A stretch of 64,000 nucleotides of DNA, from NCBI GenBank assembly GCA_963818505.1, contig CAWFSJ010000005.1:141540-205539 (forward strand). Direction: 5' to 3'. The notes under the pieces were generated by a model. It ran no database searches, was not told where the DNA came from, and worked only from the letters and a program-made list of their open reading frames with translations. Position 1 is the stretch's first letter; every line of letters starts with the position of its first letter. The stretch is from an uncultured Actinomycetota bacterium. Its GTDB lineage: Bacteria > Actinomycetota > Actinomycetes > S36-B12 > UBA10799. Below, one piece after another: positions 7,467 through 54,900 of this stretch. The translations under genes and the position numbers were made by a program.

Positions 7467-8696
7467 ATGCTTGTGAGAGAAGGTCCAAGCGTTCTAGGAA
7501 TCGTGCTGGCCGGCGGCGAAGGCAAGCGACTGATGCCGCTGACCGCGGACCGTGCCAAACCAGCAGTCCCATTCGGGGGCGCCTATCGAATGATCGACTT
7601 CGTGCTCTCGAACCTGGTCAATGGCGGCTTCTCCCGCATCTGCGTCCTGACGCAGTACAAATCCCACTCCCTGGACCGTCACATCACGACCACGTGGCGG
7701 ATGTCCAACCTGATGGGCGACTACGTGACACCGGTTCCGGCCCAGCAGCGCCTGGGGCCACGCTGGTACATGGGCTCGGCCGACGCGATCTACCAGTCCC
7801 TCAACCTGGTTTATGACGAGCGGCCCGACTACGTCGCGGTATTCGGCGCCGATCACATCTACCGCATGGATCCCTGGCAGATGCTTGATCAGCACATGGA
7901 GTCCGGGGCCGGGGTCACTGTTGCGGGCATCCGGATGGCCCGCTCGGAGGCCAGCCCGTTCGGCGTGATCGAGACCGATGTCACCGGCCAGCGCATCACG
8001 GCATTCCACGAGAAGCCCGCAGACCCTCCGGCCATCCCCGACAGCCCCGACGAGTCCTACGTCTCGATGGGCAACTACATCTTCAGCACCGACGTACTCG
8101 TCGAAGCCTTGAAGATCGACGCTGGCGACGAGGGTTCGGTTCATGACATGGGCGGGAACATCATCCCCATGCTGACCTCGCAGGGGCTGGCCCACGTCTA
8201 CGACTTCTCCGACAACGAGGTGCCCGGGGTCACCGATCGAGACCGCGGGTATTGGCGCGACGTGGGTTCGCTGGACGCCTACCACGACGCCCACATGGAC
8301 CTTGTCAGCGTGCACCCGGTCTTCAACCTCTACAACCGCAAGTGGCCTATCCTGACCTACCTGCCGCCGTTGGCCCCGGCGAAGTTCGCTCTGGGCGGTA
8401 ATGCCCATGAATCCATGGTCGGTGCCGGCTCGATCATCTCCGGCGGTCACGTGCGCCAGTCGGTGCTGTCGTTCGATGTAAGGGTGCAGGAGGGTGCCTT
8501 CGTCGAGGGTTCTGTGATCATGCCCGGGGTCAGGGTGGGCAGGAATGCCGTCATCCGCAGAGCCGTTATCGACAAATACGTGGATATCCCCGACGGCGTT
8601 CAGATCGGCGTGGACATCGAACGTGACCGCGAACGTTTCACAGTCAGTTCGGGCGGCATCGTGGTGATCGGCAAGGGCGCAATCATAGAACCCTGA
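7467..8696 (+). CDS. glgC: Glucose-1-phosphate adenylyltransferase
   Basis: [32 protein letters not shown]... The ATG is at 7467, with an alternative GTG at 7464. The longer ORF from 7155 runs antisense into glgA. Confidence 0.9.
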
Positions 8697-8704
8697 CGCC
8701 CGCG

Positions 8705-9586
8705 TCAGTGGGGGAAACGGCCGGCCTTGGCAACGAGCCCGGGAGTCGGTCGGCCCAGTTGCTCACCCAGCCATTCGCTGGCGCGGCACAACTCGTCCAG
8801 GTCCAGACCCGTGGGGAATCCGGAACGCTCGAGCGCGTAGACCAGGTCCTCGGTGGCGATGTTGCCGGTTGCCCGTGGGGCGAACGGGCAACCCCCGATG
8901 CCTCCCAGCGACGCATCCAGAACCTCCACTCCCGCGTCGGCCGCGGCCAGCGCGCTCGCGTACCCCGTGTTGCGGGTGTTGTGCACGTGTACCCGCAGGG
9001 GGACAGCGACAGCCTCCCGAACCGCGGTCAGGCGCTTATGAACGTCCTTGGGCACGGCGACGCCGATCGTGTCCGCGATCGCGAGTTCATCGATGCCGGC
9101 TGCGGCGACCTGCTGGGCAACGTCCACAAGACGTGACACCTCGACCTCGCCCTCATAGGGGCAGCCAAACGATGCCGACAGCGTGACGCTGACGGGCAGC
9201 CCGGCGTCCTTGGCCCGTGGTGCGACAGCGGCCACCGCCGCGATGGCCCCAGCGGTGTCCATCCCCTGGTTCTTCTCCGAGAAGGTGTCCGTGACCATGA
9301 CGACGAGGTTGACCTCGCTCACCTGCGTCGCCATTGCCCGCTCGAACCCCCGCTCGTTGAGCACGAGACCGATGTAGGAGGCGACGTCGGGCCGCAGGCG
9401 ATCCAGCACCGCCTCCGCATCGGCCATCTGCGGGACCCGCTTGGGGTTGACAAAACTGGCGACCTCGATGCGGCGGGTTCCCGCTGCCAGGCACCGGTTG
9501 ACGAACTCGACCTTCGTCCCGGTGTCGAACACGACGGCCTCGTTCTGCAGGCCGTCGCGCGGACCGACCTCGACGATCTGGATCAT
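8705..9586 (-). CDS. Hydroxymethylglutaryl-CoA lyase
   Basis: IVEVGPRDGLQNE...EVASFVNPKRVPQMAD plus a C-terminal DASLGGIGGCPFAPRATGN motif. Confidence 0.85.
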   Translation of the reverse strand: MIQIVEVGPRDGLQNEAVVFDTGTKVEFVNRCLAAGTRRIEVASFVNPKRVPQMADAEAVLDRLRPDVASYIGLVLNERGFERAMATQVSEVNLVVMVTDTFSEKNQGMDTAGAIAAVAAVAPRAKDAGLPVSVTLSASFGCPYEGEVEVSRLVDVAQQVAAAGIDELAIADTIGVAVPKDVHKRLTAVREAVAVPLRVHVHNTRNTGYASALAAADAGVEVLDASLGGIGGCPFAPRATGNIATEDLVYALERSGFPTGLDLDELCRASEWLGEQLGRPTPGLVAKAGRFPH

Positions 9587-9921: not shown

Positions 9922-10788
9922 TCAGCCGAAGCGACCGGAGATGTAGCCCTCGGTGCGCGTGTCCTTGGGGGTCATGAAGATCTCCTGGGTCGGACCGAAC
10001 TCCACGAGGCGACCGTGTCGAACACCCTTGGCATCCACCTCGGCCGTGAAGAAGGCCGTGCGATCCGAGACCCGAGCTGCCTGCTGCATGTTGTGCGTCA
10101 CGATCACGATCGTGAACTCAGTCGCCAGCTCGTGCATCAGATCCTCGATCTTCGCGGTCGCGATCGGGTCCAAAGAAGCACACGGCTCGTCCATAAGGAT
10201 CACGTCCGGGTTGACCGCAATACAGCGTGCGATGCACAGGCGCTGCTGCTGTCCACCGGACAATGCCATGCCGCTTGTATCCAGCTTGTCCTTGACCTCA
10301 TCCCAAAGCGCCGCGCGCACCAAGGAACGCTCGACGATCTCGTCGAGGTCCTTCTTCTTCTCACCCAGCACCCTGGGTCCGTAGGCGATGTTGTCGTAGA
10401 TGCTCTTGGGGAAGGGGTTGGGCTTCTGGAAGACCATCCCGATCCGGCGGCGCACCTCGATGGGGTCGACGTCGCCGGAATAGATGTCCACCCCGTGGTA
10501 CAGGACCTCACCGGCGACCCTGGCCCCCGGGATCAGGTCATTCATTCTGTTGAACGATCTGAGCAACGTGGTCTTCCCGCAGCCGGACGGTCCGATGAAC
10601 GCCGTGATCTCGCGCTTGGCGATGGGCATGTTCACCTCGCGGACGGCCTCATAGTCCCCATAGAAGACGTGGACGTTGCGCAGTTCCATCACCGTCTCGG
10701 TGACGGCTTCGGATGCAGCCGCCCGGCCGAACCTGGCGTCCGCGGCGGTACCGTCCTGCGTGGTCACTGTTCCTCCAACTTGAGTCAT
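9922..10788 (-). CDS. pstB: Phosphate ABC transporter ATP-binding protein
   Basis: Walker [27 protein letters not shown]. The ATG at 10788 has GGGAAG upstream and lies after the pstA stop. Confidence 0.9.
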
Positions 10789-10822
10789 TTCGCACTTCCC
10801 TGGATCGGGTATCGTTTCACAG

Positions 10823-11722
10823 TCACCACCGCCGCTGGAAGCGGTTCCGGAGGTAGATCGCAAAGGCATTCATGACTAGCAGGATGCCTAGCAGGATGAT
10901 GCACAGCGCGGCTGCGAGGACCTGGAACTCCTCACGGGACTGCGAGATCCAGTTGTAGATCTGGATCGGCATCACCGTGTACGAGCTCATCAGCCCGTCG
11001 GGGTTGAACGTGATGAACGTGACCGCGCCCAACAACAGCAGCGGCGCTGCCTCCCCGATCGCCCTGGAGAGCGCGAGGATGGCGCCAGTGGCGATGCCCG
11101 GAATGGCCGCTGGCATCACCTGCCGCGAGACCGTTTGCCACTGGGTCGCACCCAATGCCAGAGAACCGGCACGAATCGACTGCGGTACGGCCCGGATGGC
11201 CTCGCGTGAGGAGATGATGACCACCGGAAGTACCAGCAGCGAGAGGGTCAGCGCCGCGGTGATCACGGTCTGTCCCAGGGCAAGGGCCCGGGCGATGACG
11301 CCGAGTCCCAGGATGCCGTAGACGATGGAAGGAACGGCGGCCAGGTTCTGGATGTTGATCTCGACCAGCTTGTTGAAGCGCTTGGTCGGGTCGGCGTATT
11401 CCTCCAGGTAGATCGCCGCCATGACCCCCACGGGCAAACAGATGAACGCCGTGGTCACGATCACCCAGATCGAGCCCATGATGGCCGACTGGGCGCCGGC
11501 CTTCTCGGGGAACCTGATGCTGGGCATGTTCTGCCACAGCGTGGGCGTCAGACCCGACCAACCCTCATGGAACACGAATACCAGCAGGGCGGCCAGCGTG
11601 ACGATTCCCACGGAGAGGGCTGCGAACAGCAACCAGCGGAAACCACGGTCCTTGAGCGGCGGACCGGTGTCCTGCAGGTCCTGCTTGACCTGCTCCCCGA
11701 CCCCGGCGAACATCGTGCTCAT
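10823..11722 (-). CDS. pstA: Phosphate ABC transporter permease PstA
   Basis: 299-aa polytopic permease in the pstSCAB order. Confidence 0.9.
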
Positions 11723-43233: not shown

Positions 43234-44169
43234 ATGGGTTGGAACATCGAGGACATTCCCGACATCGCGGGACGCAGCTACCTGATCACGGGCGCCACAT
43301 CCGGGCTGGGATTCGAGTCGGCCAAAGCGCTGGCTGAGGCCGGTGGCGACGTCATCCTCGCCGGGCGATCGACCGAACGTCTGGCACAGGCCCAGCGAAG
43401 CATCAATCGTGAGACGCAGAGTCTGCTGGTTGACCTCGCCGACCTCGACAGCGTGCGCAAGGCCGCCGACAACCTTCCGGTCGAACAGCTCGATGTGCTG
43501 GTGAACAACGCAGGGATCATGGCGCCGCCGCTTGGCCGGACCCAGGACGGCTTCGAGACCCAGATCGGTACGAACCACCTGGGCCACTTCGCACTCACGG
43601 CGCTGCTGCTGCCGAGAATGGACCCGAGTAGCGATCAGTCGCGAGTGGTGACAGTTTCCAGCGGAGCCCACCGCATGGGGCGGATGGACCTGGACGACCT
43701 CAACTACGAGCACCGCAAGTACTCGGCGTGGCAGGCGTACGGTCAGAGCAAACTGGCCAACCTGTTGTTCATGGCCGAACTCGACCGGCGCAGCAGGGCA
43801 GCCGACTGGCATCTTCGCAGCGTTGCCGCCCACCCGGGCTTCGCGGCCACCAACCTGCAGTTCGCCGGCCCCAAGATCGCGCACAACCCGGTCGGCAGAC
43901 AACTCACCAAGCTGATGAATGCTGTGGCCGGGCAGTCAGCGCAGTCCGGGGCACGGCCGCAGTTGTACGCGGCAACCATGGACGACGTGCGGGGCGGGGA
44001 GTACTTCGGTCCGTCCGGGCCGTTCGAGTCCCGTGGCGCTGCGACCAGGGTGGGGCGTTCCTCACAGGCGCAGGATGCCCGCACCGCTGCGATGCTGTGG
44101 GACTTGTCCGAGGACCTCACCGGCGTGCGCTACGACTTCACCGACCGCCCGAACTCCTCCACGTCGTAG
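43234..44169 (+). CDS. SDR-family oxidoreductase
   Basis: LITGATSGLGFESAKAL, NNAG, and YGQSK (YxxxK). Confidence 0.8.
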   Translation: MGWNIEDIPDIAGRSYLITGATSGLGFESAKALAEAGGDVILAGRSTERLAQAQRSINRETQSLLVDLADLDSVRKAADNLPVEQLDVLVNNAGIMAPPLGRTQDGFETQIGTNHLGHFALTALLLPRMDPSSDQSRVVTVSSGAHRMGRMDLDDLNYEHRKYSAWQAYGQSKLANLLFMAELDRRSRAADWHLRSVAAHPGFAATNLQFAGPKIAHNPVGRQLTKLMNAVAGQSAQSGARPQLYAATMDDVRGGEYFGPSGPFESRGAATRVGRSSQAQDARTAAMLWDLSEDLTGVRYDFTDRPNSSTS

Positions 44170-44678
44170 ACCCACAACTGGGCCGGCCAGGTTTGTGGCA
44201 CCAGCCCAGCCTTGCGCCACAGACCCGCCACGAAAAGTTCGGCTGTGGGCAGTTGTTCCCACACCGCCGGCAGGAAAGTGCCCCGGCGACCGGCGGCTGC
44301 CACTACTGCCCCACAGCGTGGCAGCCTGGCGACAACGTCGCGGTAGGAGTCGGCGGGAAACTCCCGCAACGCACCGAGTACTGAGATCTCGACGTCAACG
44401 CCTCGCAAGTCGGTGACCGGGTCGAACCGGGGGTCGTCGAACGCGGCAGCCATCGCATGCTCGGCGATGTCATGACCGAGCTGCTGATAGGCCTCAAGCG
44501 CACCGATGCACCCCAACAGTTGCCCGTCCCGGCGCAATGTCACGAAGGAGCAGCCGGGCACCGACAAGAAGTCCGGCAGCACCTGCGGCATCCGGCGGTG
44601 GCCTGTTCTCAAGGCCTCTTGGATCGTCCCGACGGCGAGGTCGAGCATCTGCTCGCGTTGCTGCGCAGTGTGCATCAC
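44130..44678 (-). CDS. AmmeMemoRadiSam system protein A (AMMECR1 domain)
   Basis: FVTLRRDGQLLGCIGAL...AAFDDPRF...GTFLPAVW. Confidence 0.85.
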   Translation of the reverse strand: MMHTAQQREQMLDLAVGTIQEALRTGHRRMPQVLPDFLSVPGCSFVTLRRDGQLLGCIGALEAYQQLGHDIAEHAMAAAFDDPRFDPVTDLRGVDVEISVLGALREFPADSYRDVVARLPRCGAVVAAAGRRGTFLPAVWEQLPTAELFVAGLWRKAGLVPQTWPAQLWVYDVEEFGRSVKS

Positions 44679-45439
44679 AACCCCACTGTGAAAGCGCCGT
44701 AGCCCACCACGCGATCGCGCGGACCTGCGGTGTCACCCGAGTTGCGCAGATCCAGCAGGCGCACGTCGTAGTCGAGCCGGTCGGTTGCCACCAGCATGCC
44801 GCGCAACGGGTAGGCGCCGCAGGCGTCGTCGTCGCGGATGGCTGGCCAGTCGCGCGCGACTATCCGCGACGCCGTGGCGCAGTCCTTCTCCAGCGCCGCG
44901 TGATACGGCAAGTAGTGCGACAGGTCCGTGGACACGACCAGCAGGGTCTCAGGATCGGCGAGGAAACCCTGGAGGATGTCGGCAACCTCATACGGGTCGG
45001 CACGTCCCACCAGCAACGGCAACAGCGCCCAGCCCGGCTCCAACTGACGCTGCAGGAAGGGGAGTTGGACCTCGAGGCTGTGCTCGGGCGCGTGGGGGTA
45101 GTCGTCCACGGCGACGCCAAGTTCGGCTATCGCTGCGGTGTCGATCGGCACATCCCCCAGCGGCGTGCGCCAGATCTGCGCCGCTGGCGCCACGATAGCG
45201 GGCACCGCGACGAAATGTGCCGGCCCGGCGAGCACGACCCGCTGGGTCTGCGTGCACGTGCGGTAGGCGTGGGCCGCCACCGGCCCCGAGAAGATGTGCC
45301 CGGCATGAGGAACGATGATCCCTTGCGGCTGAGCCGATCCCTGCGGCGCGGAAGCGAGGTACTCGTCGATCTCATCGGCGAGATCAACCGGGTCCTGGGT
45401 GTAGAAGCGCCCGGCGACAGCTGGTTGTCTGATCCTCAT
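44675..45439 (-). CDS. AmmeMemoRadiSam system protein B (Memo-like)
   Basis: RQPAVAGRFY...IIVPHAGHIFSGPVAAHAY...DLSHY. Confidence 0.85.
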   Translation of the reverse strand: MRIRQPAVAGRFYTQDPVDLADEIDEYLASAPQGSAQPQGIIVPHAGHIFSGPVAAHAYRTCTQTQRVVLAGPAHFVAVPAIVAPAAQIWRTPLGDVPIDTAAIAELGVAVDDYPHAPEHSLEVQLPFLQRQLEPGWALLPLLVGRADPYEVADILQGFLADPETLLVVSTDLSHYLPYHAALEKDCATASRIVARDWPAIRDDDACGAYPLRGMLVATDRLDYDVRLLDLRNSGDTAGPRDRVVGYGAFTVGL

Positions 45440-46764
45440 GTCCCACCCCCTGCTAGAAGCAACCTTTCGACCTTGCCCGACGCGTTGTGCGGGATGGCGT
45501 CGAGACGCTCAATCTGCTTCGGGCGTTTGTACGCCGCCAGCCGCCCGTTCGCCCAACGGATGATGTCGTCGGGAGTCGCATCCCCGCTGTAGGCAGCGCA
45601 CACCCGCTGTCCCCAGCGGTCGTCATCGCGTCCGAACACCGCGATCTCGCCAACACCGGGACATTCCGAGAGCACCGCCTCCACCTCAGCCGGATACACA
45701 TTGACTCCCCCCGTGATGATGAGATCCTCGCGCCTGCCCTCCAGGTACAGGAACCCGTCCTCGAGCCGGCCGAGATCGCCCACGCTGAAGGCATCAGCGT
45801 CCCAGGCAGCGCGTGTCTTCGCCGGGTCGTTCCAATAGGAGAACCGGGCGAACTCGGGGGTGTGACACCAGATGATGCCTTCGCGGATCTCCAGGCGACG
45901 GCCACGACGGGCTCGGCCCACGGTCCCTGGCCGCTGCTCCCAGTCGGAGCCCGGGCACACGGTGAACTGGCCTTCCGTTGAACCGTAGAACTCCCACACT
46001 TGTTCGACTCCGGCCCACTGGTGCAGCTGGCGTTTCAGCGCCGGCGGGCACGCCGCCCCGGCGTGGGTGATCAACCGGTACGGGCTGCGCGGCAGGTCCA
46101 ACTCGAAGAGGCGCCGCAGGTGGCTGGGTACCAGGAACGCATGGGTCGGCTGATGTTCTGCCAGCGCCGCTGCTACGGCTGATGCGTCGAAACCCCCGGG
46201 CAGGATGGCGTTGCCGCCGGCCTGCAGTACCAGCATCGCGTACCGCAGGGGCGCGGCGTGGCACAGCGGCCCGTGGACCAAGGTGACGTCGTCGGCAGTG
46301 AACTCCCATTGGTCCAGCTCGTCACGCCACAGATCCTCTGTACCTAGCACTGCGATGCCCTGCGTGTACACACCTTTGGGTCGTCCGGTGGTACCGGACG
46401 TGTAATGCATCGGCCGTCCGAGCGGCCACGCCGACAGTTCGGGGACGCGCCCACGCCATTCGCTAAGCGCCACCATCTGGGAGGCATCCTCGATCACGAC
46501 CGCAGCACCGCTGTCGGTGACGATGTGTTCGCGTTCCGAGGGCGTCAGCATGGGGTTGATGGGCACGGGGACCAGCCCGGTGCGCAATGCGGCAGCCACG
46601 ATGGCGATGGTGCGGGCCTGCAGTGCGGCCGCCTCCTCAGGAGGATGGCGATGCTCGGGGGTCACCACTGCCACCCGATCGGCGGGCTGCAGCCCCATTT
46701 CCCGCAACCCCCCAGCAGCGGACTGCGTCATCCGCTGGTATTGGCTGGCTTGCAGGACGAACAT
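45436..46764 (-). CDS. Compact ANL-superfamily adenylate-forming ligase (acyl-CoA synthetase-like)
   Basis: YTSGTTGRPKGV, EFYGSTEG, VGDLG, GRREDLIITGGVNVYPAEVE, NASGKV. 4-nt overlap with the Memo gene start. Confidence 0.8.
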   Translation of the reverse strand: MFVLQASQYQRMTQSAAGGLREMGLQPADRVAVVTPEHRHPPEEAAALQARTIAIVAAALRTGLVPVPINPMLTPSEREHIVTDSGAAVVIEDASQMVALSEWRGRVPELSAWPLGRPMHYTSGTTGRPKGVYTQGIAVLGTEDLWRDELDQWEFTADDVTLVHGPLCHAAPLRYAMLVLQAGGNAILPGGFDASAVAAALAEHQPTHAFLVPSHLRRLFELDLPRSPYRLITHAGAACPPALKRQLHQWAGVEQVWEFYGSTEGQFTVCPGSDWEQRPGTVGRARRGRRLEIREGIIWCHTPEFARFSYWNDPAKTRAAWDADAFSVGDLGRLEDGFLYLEGRREDLIITGGVNVYPAEVEAVLSECPGVGEIAVFGRDDDRWGQRVCAAYSGDATPDDIIRWANGRLAAYKRPKQIERLDAIPHNASGKVERLLLAGGGT

Positions 46765-46773
46765 GACGCCAGG

Positions 46774-47877
46774 CTAGCCACGCATCCGGATGGGCAGGCG
46801 CCTGCGGCCCCAGGTCCCGGCAGTAGCAGCGAAGACGCCGGGAAGTCGGGTGCCGCAGCGCGTGCAGGATCCGGCTGCGTCGAGATCGTAGGCCAACAAC
46901 TCGTACCAGTCCCGCACGATGAGCGGACTCTTGCACGTCGGGCAGTAGGTGGTGTCGCCGGCTGAGTCGTGGACGTTGCCCGTATAGGCGAAGCGCACAC
47001 CTTCGGCCGTCGCGATCTGCCTGGCACGGGCCAACGACGCCGGTGGCGTCCTGGGCACATCGAGCATCTTCCAGTCCGGGTGAAATGCGCTGAAGTGCAT
47101 GGGGACGTCCGGACCGAGGTGTTCGACCACCCACCTCGCCATGCGCGTCAATTCCTCGTCCGAGTCGTTGTGACCGGGCACCACCAGGGTGGTCAGCTCC
47201 ACCCACACGTCGGATTCCTTGACCGCCCACTCGATCGTCTCGAGGACCGCCTGCAGATGTCCGCCGCAGACCTTGCGGTAGTAGTCCTCGGTGAATCCCT
47301 TCAGGTCGATGTTGACCGCGTCCATGGCCTCGAACAACTCGGCCCGCGGCTCGGGTTCGATGTAACCGGCCGTCACCCCCACTGTCTTGATGCCGGCATC
47401 CCGGCAGGCATAGGCGGTGTCCACCGCGTACTCGAGGAACACCACTGGATCGTTGTAGGTGAACGCGACGCTGGTGCACCCGTACCGAAGCGCTGCGTCG
47501 GCGATCGCCTGCGGGGAGGCACTGTCAGCCAGCGTGTCGATGTCGCGCGACTTCGAGATGTCCCAGTTCTGGCAGAACTTGCAGGTGAGGTTGCAGCCAG
47601 CCGTACCGAATGAAAGAACCGGAGTCCCCGGCAGGAAGTGGTTCAGTGGCTTCTTCTCGATCGGGTCGATGCAGTACCCACTGGACCTGCCATACGTCGT
47701 CGAAACGATCCGGTCACTGTCGCGGGCACGGACGAAACACAATCCCCGCTGCCCCTCGTGGAGCCGACAAGCCCGCGGGCAGACATCGCACTGCACACGG
47801 CCGTCGTCGAGAAGGTGCCAGTACTTCGTCTCTGACACCTGACCCAACGACGCGCTCGTGCGTGACTGCGCCCCCAC
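46774..47877 (-). CDS. AmmeMemoRadiSam system radical SAM enzyme
   Basis: CDVCPRAC N-terminal Cys motif and the CNLTCKFCQNW radical-SAM CX3CX2C motif. Confidence 0.85.
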   Translation of the reverse strand: MGAQSRTSASLGQVSETKYWHLLDDGRVQCDVCPRACRLHEGQRGLCFVRARDSDRIVSTTYGRSSGYCIDPIEKKPLNHFLPGTPVLSFGTAGCNLTCKFCQNWDISKSRDIDTLADSASPQAIADAALRYGCTSVAFTYNDPVVFLEYAVDTAYACRDAGIKTVGVTAGYIEPEPRAELFEAMDAVNIDLKGFTEDYYRKVCGGHLQAVLETIEWAVKESDVWVELTTLVVPGHNDSDEELTRMARWVVEHLGPDVPMHFSAFHPDWKMLDVPRTPPASLARARQIATAEGVRFAYTGNVHDSAGDTTYCPTCKSPLIVRDWYELLAYDLDAAGSCTRCGTRLPGVFAATAGTWGRRRLPIRMRG

Positions 47878-47908
47878 ACCTCAAGGGCACCACCGCACCA
47901 TCGCGGTG

Positions 47909-48286
47909 TCAAGGCTGGTCGGGGGCCGTCTGCAGGTGATACGCGTAATGACTGTCCATGGCCAGCAAGAAGCCGCCCTGGACCACGACCGCGGCACCGT
48001 CACCGCGGTACTGCTGCTTGCGCAGCAGCCACGCACCAACACTGACGTATCCCACATCGGCCAAGGTGTTGATCATCAGGATCTTGCGCAGGCGGGCAGG
48101 ATCCGGGTCCGGTCTACTCCGGCCGTAGATCACGATGGCGGCGTTCACCACACCCCAGGCCAGCGTCTGACGGCCGAAGGAGCGAACTACTTGCGGCCCC
48201 CCTGCGGCCCAGAGGGCACCTCCGGCGACGATCGAGGACGCAGACCAGACGGTGAAGGTCCGTATGAGGTCCTTGGATGTGGCCAT
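47909..48286 (-). CDS. Small multi-pass membrane protein (unknown family)
   Basis: 125 aa with 3-4 hydrophobic segments. The ATG directly abuts the upstream stop. Confidence 0.5.
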   Translation of the reverse strand: MATSKDLIRTFTVWSASSIVAGGALWAAGGPQVVRSFGRQTLAWGVVNAAIVIYGRSRPDPDPARLRKILMINTLADVGYVSVGAWLLRKQQYRGDGAAVVVQGGFLLAMDSHYAYHLQTAPDQP

Positions 48287-48508
48287 TCACCCCTCCAGGA
48301 ACGGGCAGTGGCGGCAGCCGTTGTGGCAGCACGATCCACGCTCGAGGTGATACGCCGCGGTCAGCACGAACAGGCCCGAATCAGGGTCGATGTAGCCGGG
48401 CTGGTGGGCGTCGACGGCCGCCTCGTGCAAACGCAGGATCTCTTCGAAACGTGGATGTTCGCACGACAGCCGATCCGGATGCGGGGTCATGGGGTCGCAG
48501 CGTGCCAC
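48287..48508 (-). CDS. DUF5522-like small cysteine-rich protein
   Basis: 73 aa ending ...LERGSCCHNGCRHCPFLEG. Confidence 0.6.
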   Translation of the reverse strand: MARCDPMTPHPDRLSCEHPRFEEILRLHEAAVDAHQPGYIDPDSGLFVLTAAYHLERGSCCHNGCRHCPFLEG

Positions 48509-48515
48509 CTAGCCA

Positions 48516-49148
48516 TTATTCGGGTGGTCCGACCATGTCCGCCAATGCGCCCATCAAAGGACGCATCTTCTCGAAACTGGTACGCACCGTGGATTGCAGC
48601 CGTTTGGTTCCCATCCAGGCCTGTGGCTGCCAGGTCCGCGTGACATGCAGGGTTCGGTGCCGCAGCAGGTCGAGGTCGGGGTTGTCGTCGTCAACCCCGC
48701 GCGGCTTGGTCTTCAGTTGCTCACCGCCGACTTCGAACCCAGCCCTTGGCAGCGCCTTGAGCGCAGCCCGAAGTGTCACGGCGCCCGATTCGAGGATGTG
48801 CTCCCGGAATCGTTTGACCTGCATCGGGGTCGACTGGTACCACCCACCGGCCACCATGAGCCCGCTTGCGCTGACTTGCAGGTACCAGCCCAGACCGTTG
48901 TCCGCGGCGAAGACGCAGCCCTGGTGATCCTTGATCGGGGCAGCGTCACGGCTGAACCGCATGTCCCTATAGGGCCGATACAGGTGCCCGGGCCCGAACT
49001 CCGGTGCGAGCTCCTCGGCCAGGTCGCTGAGGGGTTCCCGGACGAACTGCTCGTACTGCGCCTTGTGTTCAGCCCAGAACTCCCTGGTGTTCTCGGCCTC
49101 GAGCCGCTCGTAGAACTCGAAGGCTTCCGCCGGTATTCCGTTGGTCAT
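48516..49148 (-). CDS. DUF2461 (TIGR02453) family protein
   Basis: FEFYERLEAENTREFWAEHK...YRPYRDMRFSRD...GWY. ATG at 49148. Confidence 0.75.
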   Translation of the reverse strand: MTNGIPAEAFEFYERLEAENTREFWAEHKAQYEQFVREPLSDLAEELAPEFGPGHLYRPYRDMRFSRDAAPIKDHQGCVFAADNGLGWYLQVSASGLMVAGGWYQSTPMQVKRFREHILESGAVTLRAALKALPRAGFEVGGEQLKTKPRGVDDDNPDLDLLRHRTLHVTRTWQPQAWMGTKRLQSTVRTSFEKMRPLMGALADMVGPPE

Positions 49149-49256
49149 GACCCCAGAGTGCCAGCAACCAGCGACCCCGGGAACCACGTTGCCAGCGGGC
49201 TGTGGACCGACGTCGACAGGAATCCACAGGGCGATCCACACGGCTAGTGTCTGAGC

Positions 49257-50534
49257 ATGGTTCAGGATCAGGGCCTGACGGCACGCGTGGTCGCCGCCTC
49301 CGCGGGCCGCGACCGGGTCCTGGACGCCGTGAAGGCTCTCGCGCTTCTGATAGTGATCATGGGTCACAGCCTGGCGTGGCACGTGCGCCCGGACGCGTCA
49401 GCTGTGAACGTGCTGGAGGACGCCCACGCCTTGATCCCCTTGACCTGGATCTTCCAGGTTCTCCCGCTGTTCTTCGCCGCCGGCGCGGTCTCCAACGCCG
49501 CATCACTTGCCAGACACGGCAGCACCGGCTACCTACAGGCCAGGGGCACCCGCCTGCTGGCACCCGTGGTCGTCTACGCCACCGTTTGGACGCTGGTGCT
49601 GCTGCCCTTGAGCAGTGTCGAACTGGTGGCCGGGGCGGGCCGATTCTTGGCGCAGTTGCTTTGGTTCGCCGGCGTGTACCTGCTTGTGGCCTCAGCCGCG
49701 GTGTTCACGACCCGCTGGGTGGGCAAACCGGCACTCTCGCTGGGGATGTGGCTGATCGCGATCATCGCCATGGATTTCGTTCGGACGACCGGGTTCGCCT
49801 CCTGGGGTTGGATCAACATGCTGCTCGTCTGGGGCTGGCTGCACCAGGTGGGCTATTACCTACCGAAACTGCGTCGCCGAGCCTGGCTGCTTCCGGTCGG
49901 CCTGGCGCTGATCGGGGTGGCCGTGGCGATTGCATTCCGCGGCCCCTACTCGCATTCCCTGATCTCGGTGGCCGGGGTGCCCGGGCTGTCCAACCTCGCA
50001 CCGCCGAGCCTGGTACTGGCGGTCTTCGGTGCCGGACAGATCCTGCTCCTGGCTGGCGCCTGGAAGTGGTTGGAAGCACTACTCGACTCCGATCGGCTAT
50101 GGGCCGGCGTGGCACTCGTCGGAGCGCGTGGGATGGGCATGTATCTGTGGCACATCCCGCTGGTCGGCATCGCCGCCGGCACGGCCATCGCCCTGGGCTG
50201 GAGCCAACCGCCGCTCAGCGCTGCATGGTGGCTGGTCCACATCGCTGTCGTCGTGCTGGTCGTGCCGCTGGCCTGGTCCATCGCTGGGCTCGCGGCAATC
50301 CCCGAGCGACGCCTGCGTCGCGTCCACCTCCCGTCGGCATCAGCCGCGCTGGGTTGTGTCCTCGGCGCGGCGACGGTGATCAACCTGTCGGTCACAGGCT
50401 TCGCCACTCTGGCTGGCACAGGCGCGATCGGACTGCCATCCTCGGCTGTGCTCAATCTGGCGCTGGTCTGGCTGGCGTGGGCGTTGGTGAACCCGGGCTC
50501 ACCTGGTGAAGAGCACGCTCAGACCCAGCAGTAG
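49257..50534 (+). CDS. Acyltransferase-3 (OafA-like) family membrane protein
   Basis: RVLDAVKALALLIVIMGHS... followed by about 10 TM segments. Confidence 0.8.
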   Translation: MVQDQGLTARVVAASAGRDRVLDAVKALALLIVIMGHSLAWHVRPDASAVNVLEDAHALIPLTWIFQVLPLFFAAGAVSNAASLARHGSTGYLQARGTRLLAPVVVYATVWTLVLLPLSSVELVAGAGRFLAQLLWFAGVYLLVASAAVFTTRWVGKPALSLGMWLIAIIAMDFVRTTGFASWGWINMLLVWGWLHQVGYYLPKLRRRAWLLPVGLALIGVAVAIAFRGPYSHSLISVAGVPGLSNLAPPSLVLAVFGAGQILLLAGAWKWLEALLDSDRLWAGVALVGARGMGMYLWHIPLVGIAAGTAIALGWSQPPLSAAWWLVHIAVVVLVVPLAWSIAGLAAIPERRLRRVHLPSASAALGCVLGAATVINLSVTGFATLAGTGAIGLPSSAVLNLALVWLAWALVNPGSPGEEHAQTQQ

Positions 50535-52794: not shown

Positions 52795-54900
52795 CTAGAA
52801 CCCGTTGAGTTGGTCGACGACCTCGAGCAACTGGCCCTGGTTGTACCAGTTGACCGCGACGAAGTTGGGGATCTGACCGCGCTCATCACGGCACTGGCGC
52901 ACCCGCTCACCGAGGACATCGGCGGCGTTGGCTTTCTGGGCGCTGGTGACAAGGGACGTGAAGCCGCTGAGCCAGTGGTTGACCATGAACAGATCCGGAT
53001 CGGTCGGCCCCCGGTTGGGCTTGCAGTCGAACTCGTCGACAGTCGCGTAGGTGTAGCCGGTGTCAGCGACGAGGTCGAAGCCCTGATGCAGATACGGGTA
53101 CTGCTGTCCCCCTCCTTCGTTCTCCATGAGGACCAGTAGACGTTTGCCGCTGTCGACCATCTCGCCCAGAGTCGGCCAGGGCTGCCCATCTCGGTGGACG
53201 TACGCGAACTGCGTGAGGCCGGCTTGCTCAAGAACGGCTGCCGTGTCAGCGGGAGTGACGGCGTCCTGGATGAACAGCGTGACCACCTCGCGCGGGTTGG
53301 CCCTCATCCACTGATCCAGGCCCAACATCTGAGTCAGAAGGTCGGTGGCGCCCAGTTCGCACAACGTGTGACACATGAACGGCTTCTCCGGCCCGAGGTT
53401 CTTGTCCCTGCGCAACCTTTCGATGGTTCGCTGTTCGGCCAACGTGAGTTCGGAAGCCTGCCCGTCGGTGAACTCCGACTGCGCGCGCGCCAGTGAACGC
53501 GGTGCCGTGACCACACCACCTCCTGTCGACTTCTGCCCATACCAGGTGTCGATCAGGAACACCCGGATGCCGTCGTTCAAGGAATTGACCAGACTCGTCG
53601 GCTGCTCGGCCAGGAACCAGCCCGGCTCATCGGCAGCTGACATCGAGTTGTGGCTGGCCGGGAAGGCGACCTGGTCGAAGGGCCGGTCGCACAACTGCAC
53701 ATGACCGTTGCACGCATCCGGATCACCGCTGGCCGACACCGACTGCTCCTGGGGAAGAGCCGCTGGCAGCGCAAGCACCGCCAGCAGTCCCATGGCACCA
53801 ACACCTGCCACCACGGGGATCAACCAGGCCCACCGCCATGTGTCGGAAGGATCATCTGCCGCCCCTGCCAGCCGCGCACGTTCCGCCACCCGATCCAGTT
53901 CGCCCAGACCGATGAGGAACAGGCCCACTCCGACGATTACTGCCACCACGGCGAGCGCGGTGCTCGGGAAGAACACGAAGCCGGCGCCCAAGGCCACGAG
54001 CGCCAGCCCACGAACGATCGACCATCGCGTACTGCCGGGACGTCGTGTGAGTCGACGCACTATGGCATCGATGCGTTCGTGGACATGGATGTCGGGCAGC
54101 AAGGCGCTTGCGGCGAGGACGACCATCGCCCCGACAACAGCCGTCACCGTCGCACGCAGTCCCAGCGCCCTGCCGAACACGTCGGCGGCCGAGGTCAGCA
54201 GCGCCGAAGTCAATTCACCTGGATCATAGATACGACTCGCGACCCAGGCCACCAGCGCCAACGCCCCCAGCGTCAGACCCACCGCGACCAGCGACCACCC
54301 GATCCGCAGCAAAGCGATACGACGATCGGGGGCAAGCAGCAGACCGAGCACCCATACGGCCACGGCCAAGACCGGCAGCACCAGGGCCAGGGCCGTGATG
54401 GTCTGGAACACGGGAATGATCTGGGCCGCCACTCCGCCTTGGCCACCCACCTCGGCCAGTGTCACGTCGAGGTTGTCGGGGATCTTCTGCGCAAGATCGG
54501 GCGAGAAGGCCCCCAGCAGCGACACCGCGGATGAGCCGAGATCTGCGATCGTCAGCACGGCGGAATCGGAGCCCTCCTGCGTCAGCGCGCTGTGGAAGGA
54601 TGCCACCGCCTTGGTGAACACCGGCGTGAATGCGCTGCTTCCGACAGCCAGTGCCGCAGCTCCCTGCAAAGCCGGCTGAACCGCGACGAGGTCGGGGTCG
54701 GCGTCGATCACGACACCCGTGATCTGGTCACCGAGGGCTTGGGCAAGGACTGGGTCCTGACGCATCTGATCGGCCCGCTGCGCGAAACGTTCCCCGTTGA
54801 CGATGTTCGCGTTCAGGAAGCCGGCCAGGCTGGCGACGAGGAACAGTACCGAACCCAACATCAGGGCAACCGTCGACCACCGCCCACTGGTTCGCATCAT
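52795..54900 (-). CDS. Polytopic membrane protein with a C-terminal PI-PLC-like (PLC-like phosphodiesterase) domain
   Basis: The N-terminal roughly 380 aa contain multiple TM segments. The C-terminal part, LCDRPFDQVAFPASHNSMSA...GIRVFLIDTWYG, resembles the PI-PLC-C1 family. Confidence 0.65.
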   Translation of the reverse strand: MMRTSGRWSTVALMLGSVLFLVASLAGFLNANIVNGERFAQRADQMRQDPVLAQALGDQITGVVIDADPDLVAVQPALQGAAALAVGSSAFTPVFTKAVASFHSALTQEGSDSAVLTIADLGSSAVSLLGAFSPDLAQKIPDNLDVTLAEVGGQGGVAAQIIPVFQTITALALVLPVLAVAVWVLGLLLAPDRRIALLRIGWSLVAVGLTLGALALVAWVASRIYDPGELTSALLTSAADVFGRALGLRATVTAVVGAMVVLAASALLPDIHVHERIDAIVRRLTRRPGSTRWSIVRGLALVALGAGFVFFPSTALAVVAVIVGVGLFLIGLGELDRVAERARLAGAADDPSDTWRWAWLIPVVAGVGAMGLLAVLALPAALPQEQSVSASGDPDACNGHVQLCDRPFDQVAFPASHNSMSAADEPGWFLAEQPTSLVNSLNDGIRVFLIDTWYGQKSTGGGVVTAPRSLARAQSEFTDGQASELTLAEQRTIERLRRDKNLGPEKPFMCHTLCELGATDLLTQMLGLDQWMRANPREVVTLFIQDAVTPADTAAVLEQAGLTQFAYVHRDGQPWPTLGEMVDSGKRLLVLMENEGGGQQYPYLHQGFDLVADTGYTYATVDEFDCKPNRGPTDPDLFMVNHWLSGFTSLVTSAQKANAADVLGERVRQCRDERGQIPNFVAVNWYNQGQLLEVVDQLNGF

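Follow-up and report, generated by a model that had tools for sequence, protein, structure and literature searches.

We analyzed a window of 64,000 nucleotides from an uncultured Actinomycetota bacterium (GenBank assembly GCA_963818505.1, contig CAWFSJ010000005.1, positions 141,540 to 205,539 of the forward strand) that carries an AmmeMemoRadiSam locus, that is, genes for a radical S-adenosylmethionine (SAM) enzyme (amrS), a Memo-like protein (amrB) and an AMMECR1-like protein (amrA). Between amrS and amrB, this locus holds an additional gene encoding an adenylate-forming (ANL) ligase. The ligase-containing operon is a genuine, lineage-restricted variant of the function-unknown AmmeMemoRadiSam system. 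In the explanation that we favor, with a probability of roughly 0.55, the ligase gene would have been relocated a single time into the canonical operon, its product would act there as a lineage-specific accessory, and three genes located upstream on the same strand would constitute a separate unit. The adjacency of ligase and trio is real and stable in one freshwater/soil actinobacterial clade and absent from every other sampled locus; it thus furnishes a hypothesis rather than strong guilt by association. The trio is widely conserved and lacks a known reaction, and any additional enzyme that recurred with it would offer a valuable lead. Conservation of Memo and AMMECR1 extends to humans (MEMO1, AMMECR1), whose homologues are linked to disease. 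The Memo system has reportedly been tied to nucleotide-base or isoprenoid modification.

The trio and its embedded ligase

The trio is co-located within 44130–47877 of the window, on one strand (minus), with the ligase gene interposed. The radical SAM enzyme AmrS (46774..47877, 367 aa; PF04055) scored 627.6 bits against TIGR04337 (cut-off 220), the Memo-like AmrB (44675..45439, 254 aa; PF01875) 229.5 bits against TIGR04336 (cut-off 26) and the AMMECR1-like AmrA (44130..44678, 182 aa; PF01871) 135.6 bits against TIGR04335 (cut-off 99). All three proteins thus surpassed the curated, system-specific NCBIfam cut-offs, as anticipated by an earlier reading of the same DNA made from the letters alone (hereafter the original prediction). 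AmrS displays the CX3CX2C motif as CNLTCKFC, an N-terminal cysteine cluster (CDVCPRAC...C) and a C-terminal CPTC...CTRC pair; among solved structures, none is closer than pyruvate formate-lyase activase (E = 6e-9), and no glycyl-radical enzyme family was found among the genes neighboring amrS. AmrB aligns to human MEMO1, with PHAGH in the place of PHAGY and DLSH in the place of DFCH. AmrA carries an LLGCIG cysteine motif and aligns to the archaeal AMMECR1 structures 1WSC, 1ZQ7 and 1VAJ, which are hypothetical proteins.

The intervening gene (45436..46764, minus strand) encodes a compact class I adenylate-forming ligase of 442 aa, composed of an AMP-binding N-domain (PF00501, 143.7 bits) and a C-domain (PF13193, 62.6 bits). 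The motifs YTSGTTGRPKG (residues 121–131), EFYGSTEG (258–265), GRREDLIITGG (343–353) and SGK (429–431) were located, and the core motifs A3, A5, A7, A8 and A10 are invariant across 118 family members, placing the protein in the ANL superfamily. Its nearest solved relatives are FadD13, FadD5, MatB and MenE, with E-values from 2e-44 to 1e-31. No NCBIfam equivalog reached its cut-off: all 25 listed models fell far below, the best being PRK12406 (238.7 vs 701). The test for MenE (TIGR01923) failed with 174.7 vs 330.15 bits, that for FadD4 with 201 vs 850, and FadD3, FadD5, FadD7 and PRK06187 likewise stayed under their cut-offs. The dN/dS ratio (nonsynonymous to synonymous substitutions) of the gene is 0.11–0.23 against relatives. 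It encodes a complete acyl-CoA-synthetase-type ANL enzyme that matches no substrate-specific model.

The four genes are the downstream part of a run of seven minus-strand open reading frames (ORFs) across 44130–49148, whose coordinates give gaps of 7, 0, 31, 9, –4 and –4 nt. Ligase stop and Memo start overlap as ATGA, Memo stop and AMMECR1 start as GTGA, and a G-rich stretch precedes each overlap. Purifying selection was evident for all seven in comparison with relatives (dN/dS 0.09–0.39, at a saturated dS of about 1 or more, ~1–1.9), and we therefore regard all of them as real genes. The original prediction had listed these seven genes with their coordinates, gaps and identities, all of which were borne out by the ORFs and by Pfam and NCBIfam matches; the motifs that it quoted (YTSGTTGRPKG, EFYGSTEG, GRREDLIITGG, SGK, CNLTCKFCQNW and SCCHNGCRHCPFLEG) are all present in the translations.

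It had further described the system as lacking an assigned substrate or pathway. Indeed, the literature searched yielded no function for the AmmeMemoRadiSam system and no mention or function of a ligase-containing variant, the hits being incidental mentions and a 2007 RAGNYA paper only. An association of AMMECR1 with a radical SAM enzyme and a dioxygenase has been noted, and an uncharacterized RNA base modification was proposed (Balaji and Aravind 2007, PMC2034487). "Memo-Ammecr1 systems" are cited from Burroughs et al. 2019 by Kaur et al. 2020 (PMC7159879).

Census of AmmeMemoRadiSam loci

Searched with the radical SAM protein, a set of one genome per GTDB species gave 598 relatives; the best 80 (62–83% identity) were kept. 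They stem from Gamma- and Alphaproteobacteria, Acidobacteriota, Gemmatimonadota, Nitrospirota, Chloroflexota, Planctomycetota and Actinomycetota. Their loci were searched by tblastn with the seven window proteins and, in six frames, with a hidden Markov model of 118 ligase-family sequences; members of the family score higher than about 450 bits with such a model. The embedded ligase was found in a single one of these 80 best-matching loci (L001) and otherwise only within the same clade, whereas none of the 79 other AmmeMemoRadiSam loci (1.24 Mb) had an adjacent ANL gene. Unrelated ANL genes occurred at a distance of 2–9 kb in four loci (L038, L060, L064 and L077), which we judged to be ordinary background density for a large superfamily. 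A ligase was also missing beside amrS in three annotated plasmid loci, from Trichlorobacter (38% identity), Segatella (39.5% identity) and Candidatus Mycobacterium methanotrophicum. In six other Actinomycetota loci (L007, L014, L021, L038, L061 and L068), amrS is directly followed by the Memo and AMMECR1 genes, and one of these loci, L007, belongs to a Nanopelagicales metagenome-assembled genome (MAG). In Proteobacteria, the Memo-AMMECR1 pair lies on the strand opposite to amrS. Across the loci sampled, the ligase is thus not a recurrent partner of the AmmeMemoRadiSam system.

A side observation concerns the Segatella hominis plasmid NZ_CP137560.1 (L107, 5480–6955): its annotated amrB is 491 aa long, about twice the usual Memo length, and amrS follows directly. 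This protein is probably an AMMECR1-Memo fusion.

Conservation of the arrangement within one clade

The context of the embedded ligase could be read in 15 clade loci (L001, L081, L082, L085–L093, L098, L099 and L105). Every one of them shows the order amrS, ligase, amrB, amrA, with ligases 64–89% identical to that of the window. L001 is the GTDB-representative MAG with an embedded ligase; L081 and L082 were reached via protein cluster P0004 (ligase 79% identical), and L085–L093 are nine metagenome loci with 73–79% identical ligases. The deepest branch is formed by L098 and L099 (64% identity), where translation confirmed the amrS fragment. L105 is the closest relative, with a ligase identity of 89% and proteins that are 89–92% identical. 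Named relatives of the window ligase (74–82% identity) come from MAGs labelled Candidatus Nanopelagicales or Actinomycetota. The original prediction would have failed had the arrangement been confined to this genome; instead, 15 related loci fall into a monophyletic group of 43 protein clusters (90% identity).

The junctions within the four-gene unit were conserved to different degrees. Those between ligase and Memo and between Memo and AMMECR1 always amounted to –4 or –1 nt, and the gap between amrS and ligase ranged from 9 to 153 nt. The view, put forward from the window sequence, of a ligase gene that lies within the operon and is coupled in translation to Memo agrees with the ATGA overlap there and with overlaps in all clade loci.

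Two irregularities were encountered among the clade members. In L105 (9610–10913), two 1-nt insertions break the ligase frame into three pieces that are still 88–90% identical to the window ligase; LysE in this locus is fragmented, too. An assembly error is the probable cause, rather than dispensability of the ligase, with a very recent pseudogene also conceivable. Cluster P0028 (90% identity) mixes 443-aa ligases and 254-aa AmmeMemoRadiSam B proteins, which points to a fused or frameshifted ORF that bridges ligase and Memo in some assemblies.

Origin of the embedded ligase

All 120 best database relatives of the ligase are about 420–516 aa long. In a neighbor-joining tree, the embedded ligases (P0001–P0043, 64–100% identity, P0001 being identical to the window ligase) formed one clade on its own stem. 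Ligases outside this clade were sampled from both sides of the tree (P0045, P0048, P0063, P0086 and P0075, which are 63%, 62%, 57%, 55% and 53% identical, respectively). All five are encoded by solitary genes located between uvrB (divergent) and coaE (convergent), next to rpsA and polA, and none of their loci contains amr genes within 8–10 kb. Loci of this type (L083, L095, L096, L097, L101 and L102, with the ligase at about 8001–9368 or 10001–11326) were seen in diverse Actinomycetota MAGs. The compact ANL ligases linked to uvrB and coaE apparently represent an unnamed, uncharacterized family, and the window ligase is evidently orthologous to them, judging from sequence. Because all five sampled ligases outside the clade reside at uvrB-coaE and the embedded ones are one clade, the tree indicates that the uvrB-coaE position is ancestral and the embedded one derived, having originated a single time.

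The same comparison bears on the alternative that the embedded ligase is a paralogue, which would have been duplicated and would have acquired a new, system-specific substrate, with the ancestral copy still at uvrB-coaE. Only six sites split embedded from non-embedded ligases (P87A, G135Q, S170A, F175Y, R426H and T427N). The location of four of them would suit such a change in specificity, S170A and F175Y being in or beside the A4 segment HxAPLR and R426H and T427N just before the A10 lysine of SGK, and so would the separate stem of the embedded clade. These exchanges are mostly conservative, however, and contrast with 99 of 442 positions, family-specific Trp, His and Arg residues among them, that show at least 95% invariance in either group, which argues that the ligase was relocated rather than re-invented. 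Furthermore, no second family member from the large clade contigs (1.42 Mb, 1.25 Mb, 461 kb, 325 kb and 195 kb) appeared among the top 120 matches, and the window, from which uvrB and coaE are both absent, holds a single ANL gene. We thus consider duplication and re-specialization the least probable of the explanations weighed here; the absence of a second copy among those matches favors relocation, and the gene was most likely relocated.

A candidate promoter between a proposed four-gene unit and an upstream triad

Upstream of amrS, the run of seven genes begins with a triad on the minus strand: a DUF2461/TIGR02453 family protein (48516..49148, 210 aa; PF09365, 155.4 bits; TIGR02453, 122.3 bits, cut-off 105.4), a small Cys-rich DUF5522 protein (48287..48508, 73 aa; PF17653, 71.1 bits) and a DUF6992 membrane protein (47909..48286, 125 aa; PF22503, 71.4 bits) with about four hydrophobic segments according to hydropathy. 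The DUF2461 ORF sits inside a longer ORF extending to 49382. Public gene calls place the DUF5522 start six codons later (Met7, 67 aa), so that the first gap would be 25 nt and not 7 nt. The DUF5522 protein ends in a CCxxGCxxC motif with CX3CX2C spacing, and its dN/dS is 0.15–0.34. Within the clade, these three genes are tightly associated: DUF2461 orthologues are 69–93% identical and always keep the 7-nt gap to DUF5522, and the DUF5522-DUF6992 junction measures 0, –1 or –14 nt in all relatives, the start abutting or overlapping the stop. The triad precedes the four genes wherever a clade contig extends far enough.

The original prediction had regarded the Cys-rich protein and the membrane protein as possible further components of the system, and one could go further and count all three upstream families among the components of the AmmeMemoRadiSam pathway. 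Such a seven-gene system would fit the common strand, the narrow intergenic spacing seen in the window, with 31 nt between DUF6992 and amrS, the absence of terminator-like sites between the genes and the conservation of the seven-gene order in L001, L081, L085, L086, L088, L091 and L105. Outside the clade, however, the families part company: in the 79 other loci of the census, none of DUF2461, DUF5522 and DUF6992 was found near the trio, except for DUF2461 at a distance of 5 kb in L061, and the gene surroundings of DUF5522 homologues in an Acidimicrobiales MAG and in a Flavitalea genome are unrelated. The DUF6992-amrS junction, moreover, varies from 31 to 560 nt in the clade and holds a conserved promoter-like box beside amrS. 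We infer from this junction that the block reads as 3 + 4, a DUF2461-DUF5522-DUF6992 triad followed by an amrS-ligase-amrB-amrA unit. Membership of the upstream genes in the pathway is hence improbable, and the proposal of further components was not supported; the triad would be a separate, tightly coupled group that lies upstream by chance, outside the AmmeMemoRadiSam unit. A partly conserved motif (ATCCACAG ... CTGGCA) was also seen upstream of DUF2461.

The box itself (47878..47914, minus strand) was recognized by alignment of eight clade loci. In all eight, the 37 nt before the amrS start are conserved as CTTGACA-N17-TNCNNT-N6-ATG/GTG with an invariant TTGACA, and the spacing from box to start codon stays fixed despite the variable intergenic length of 31–560 nt. 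In the window, CTTGACA (TTGACA at 47907–47912, overlapping the TGA stop of DUF6992) is followed after 17 nt by TGCCCT (47884–47889) and after 6 further nt by the GTG start codon at 47877; copies in relatives occupy L001 9964–10000, L081 8851–8887, L086 6714–6750, L089 528–564 and L091 6851–6887. This geometry points to a candidate promoter of the four-gene unit from which amrS would be transcribed leaderless. A consensus sigma-70 scan of 43800–49600 reported no promoter and did not flag the box, because position 2 of its –10 hexamer is not A. A terminator scan of the same region returned a single terminator-like site, located within the amrS coding sequence, and none between genes; chance alone would have led one to expect more. 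The results thus delimit a putative operon of four genes, not seven, and indicate a conserved cis element upstream of amrS.

A conserved RNA structure in the box was also considered and rejected, with an RNAalifold energy of –0.52 kcal/mol and no consistent covariation. The 560-nt DUF6992-amrS spacer of L081 (8328–8887) carries a sequence of about 19 nt (GCAGCGCCGAACGCGGACC) three times in direct orientation, together with an inverted repeat (CACGAGGTTAGAGAA...TTCTCTAACCTCGTG), and lacks a long ORF; it looks like an inserted repetitive element.

Accessory enzyme or pathway component

The relocation scenario, which we favor, starts from a canonical actinobacterial-type AmmeMemoRadiSam operon with the order amrS, amrB, amrA. 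In one event, in the ancestor of a single Nanopelagicales-affiliated clade, a conserved, compact acyl-CoA-synthetase-like gene of the lineage would have moved into the gap between amrS and amrB; elsewhere in Actinomycetota, this gene is found by itself, oriented away from uvrB and towards coaE. Transcription of the four-gene unit thus formed probably starts from the TTGACA box immediately upstream of amrS, and translation of ligase, Memo and AMMECR1 would be coupled via the ATGA and GTGA overlaps that are directly visible in the sequence. Since the ligase keeps the conserved residues of its family, it most likely catalyzes the reaction of its orthologues outside the operon; homology suggests that a carboxylate is adenylated at the expense of ATP and then probably transferred to CoA. 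The ligase would therefore be a co-expressed, lineage-specific accessory and not a defining component of the system.

Several points weigh against this scenario. The –10 hexamer of the candidate promoter is non-canonical. The census consists of the 80 most similar loci and a few plasmids, so that distant archaeal and Firmicutes systems were barely sampled. Finally, a true functional partnership would likewise account for a ligase that is kept, together with its start/stop overlap, down to 64% identity at saturated dS.

Such a partnership would mean that the ligase was recruited functionally and activates a carboxylate substrate, intermediate or product of the system as acyl-AMP or acyl-CoA, the clade then being a genuine chemical clue. 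Besides the coupling to Memo in every clade member and the persistence of the four-gene order, this idea accommodates the slow evolution of the ligase, whose dN (0.16–0.20) is as low as or lower than that of Memo and AMMECR1 (0.21–0.26), its inclusion in a unit that is defined by the conserved upstream box and lacks an internal terminator, and the integrity of all catalytic ANL motifs. Yet the association goes back to a single evolutionary event, an adjacent ANL gene is missing from the 79 other loci and the three plasmid loci, and the orthologues elsewhere are monocistronic genes of a housekeeping neighborhood that is free of the trio within 8–10 kb. The entire neighborhood is syntenic in the clade, so that conservation of gene order is not specific to the operon. 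As unrelated flanking genes (SDR, amine oxidase, rhomboid and methyltransferase) are kept equally well, retention of the ligase does not discriminate between relocation as an accessory and recruitment as a partner. Altogether, functional recruitment is possible and ranks clearly behind relocation as a mere accessory.

The original prediction had taken the ligase as a sign that the substrate of the system is a carboxylate, activated as acyl-AMP or acyl-CoA. The structural part of this argument, an embedded and coupled, complete ANL ligase, agrees with our findings; the step to the chemistry of the system rests on one evolutionary event. The adjacency most likely reflects a single relocation within a single clade, and the ligase is therefore no more than a weak clue to the function of the system; a carboxylate substrate is possible and weakly supported, a link of the ligase to the chemistry of the trio being rather doubtful. 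A stronger version, in which the ligase is a genuine fourth pathway enzyme and the whole uvrB-coaE family works with the trio in trans, the clade having merely joined the two loci, appears rather unlikely. If true, it would open up the chemistry of a trio without a known reaction for the first time, through a carboxylate or CoA-thioester intermediate.

Flanking genes and further features

The seven-gene block is bounded by a convergent SDR gene (43234–44169, plus strand; PF00106) on one side and a divergent Acyl_transf_3 gene (49257–50534, plus strand) on the other. The SDR gene overlaps the 3′ end of the AMMECR1 gene over 40 nt (44130–44169), and L081, L098 and L105 are annotated with this overlap as well. 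A 701-aa protein encoded at 52795–54900 (minus strand) was without a match in the searched copy of Pfam; for its L081 and L105 orthologues, precomputed matches to PF26146 (PI-PLC_X) and PF26178 (Rv2075c_cat) are on record. The G+C content is about 65%. An Rfam scan of the whole window gave no match, a tRNA scan found none, and the PADLOC defence models assigned none of the seven proteins to a family.

Comparison with known systems

The PflA structure (3C8F), the nearest solved relative of AmrS, shares the core segment of the CX3CX2C fold. AmrS differs from it by extra N- and C-terminal Cys motifs and by its score of only 61.1 bits against TIGR02493 (cut-off 231.75). The embedded ligase has the two-domain ANL architecture of FadD13 from M. 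tuberculosis (3R44), FadD5 (8R2Q), the malonyl-CoA synthetase MatB (4FUT) and the o-succinylbenzoate-CoA ligase MenE (5X8F), with which it shares the A3 P-loop, the A5 motif YGxTE, the A7 motif GD, the A8 hinge GRxxD and the A10 lysine; compared with FadD13, its N-terminal domain is about 55 residues shorter. A further relative is the uvrB-coaE ligase family (about 440–455 aa), whose sampled members are 53–63% identical to the window ligase over the full length, have the same length and share the 99 invariant positions. Members of this family are encoded monocistronically at uvrB-coaE, whereas the window ligase is encoded inside an amr operon. With respect to the AmmeMemoRadiSam system, the window trio conforms to the actinobacterial type, with amrS, amrB and amrA (PGAP names) in this order on one strand, and departs from it by the 442-aa ANL ligase between amrS and amrB, which is predicted to be translationally coupled to amrB.

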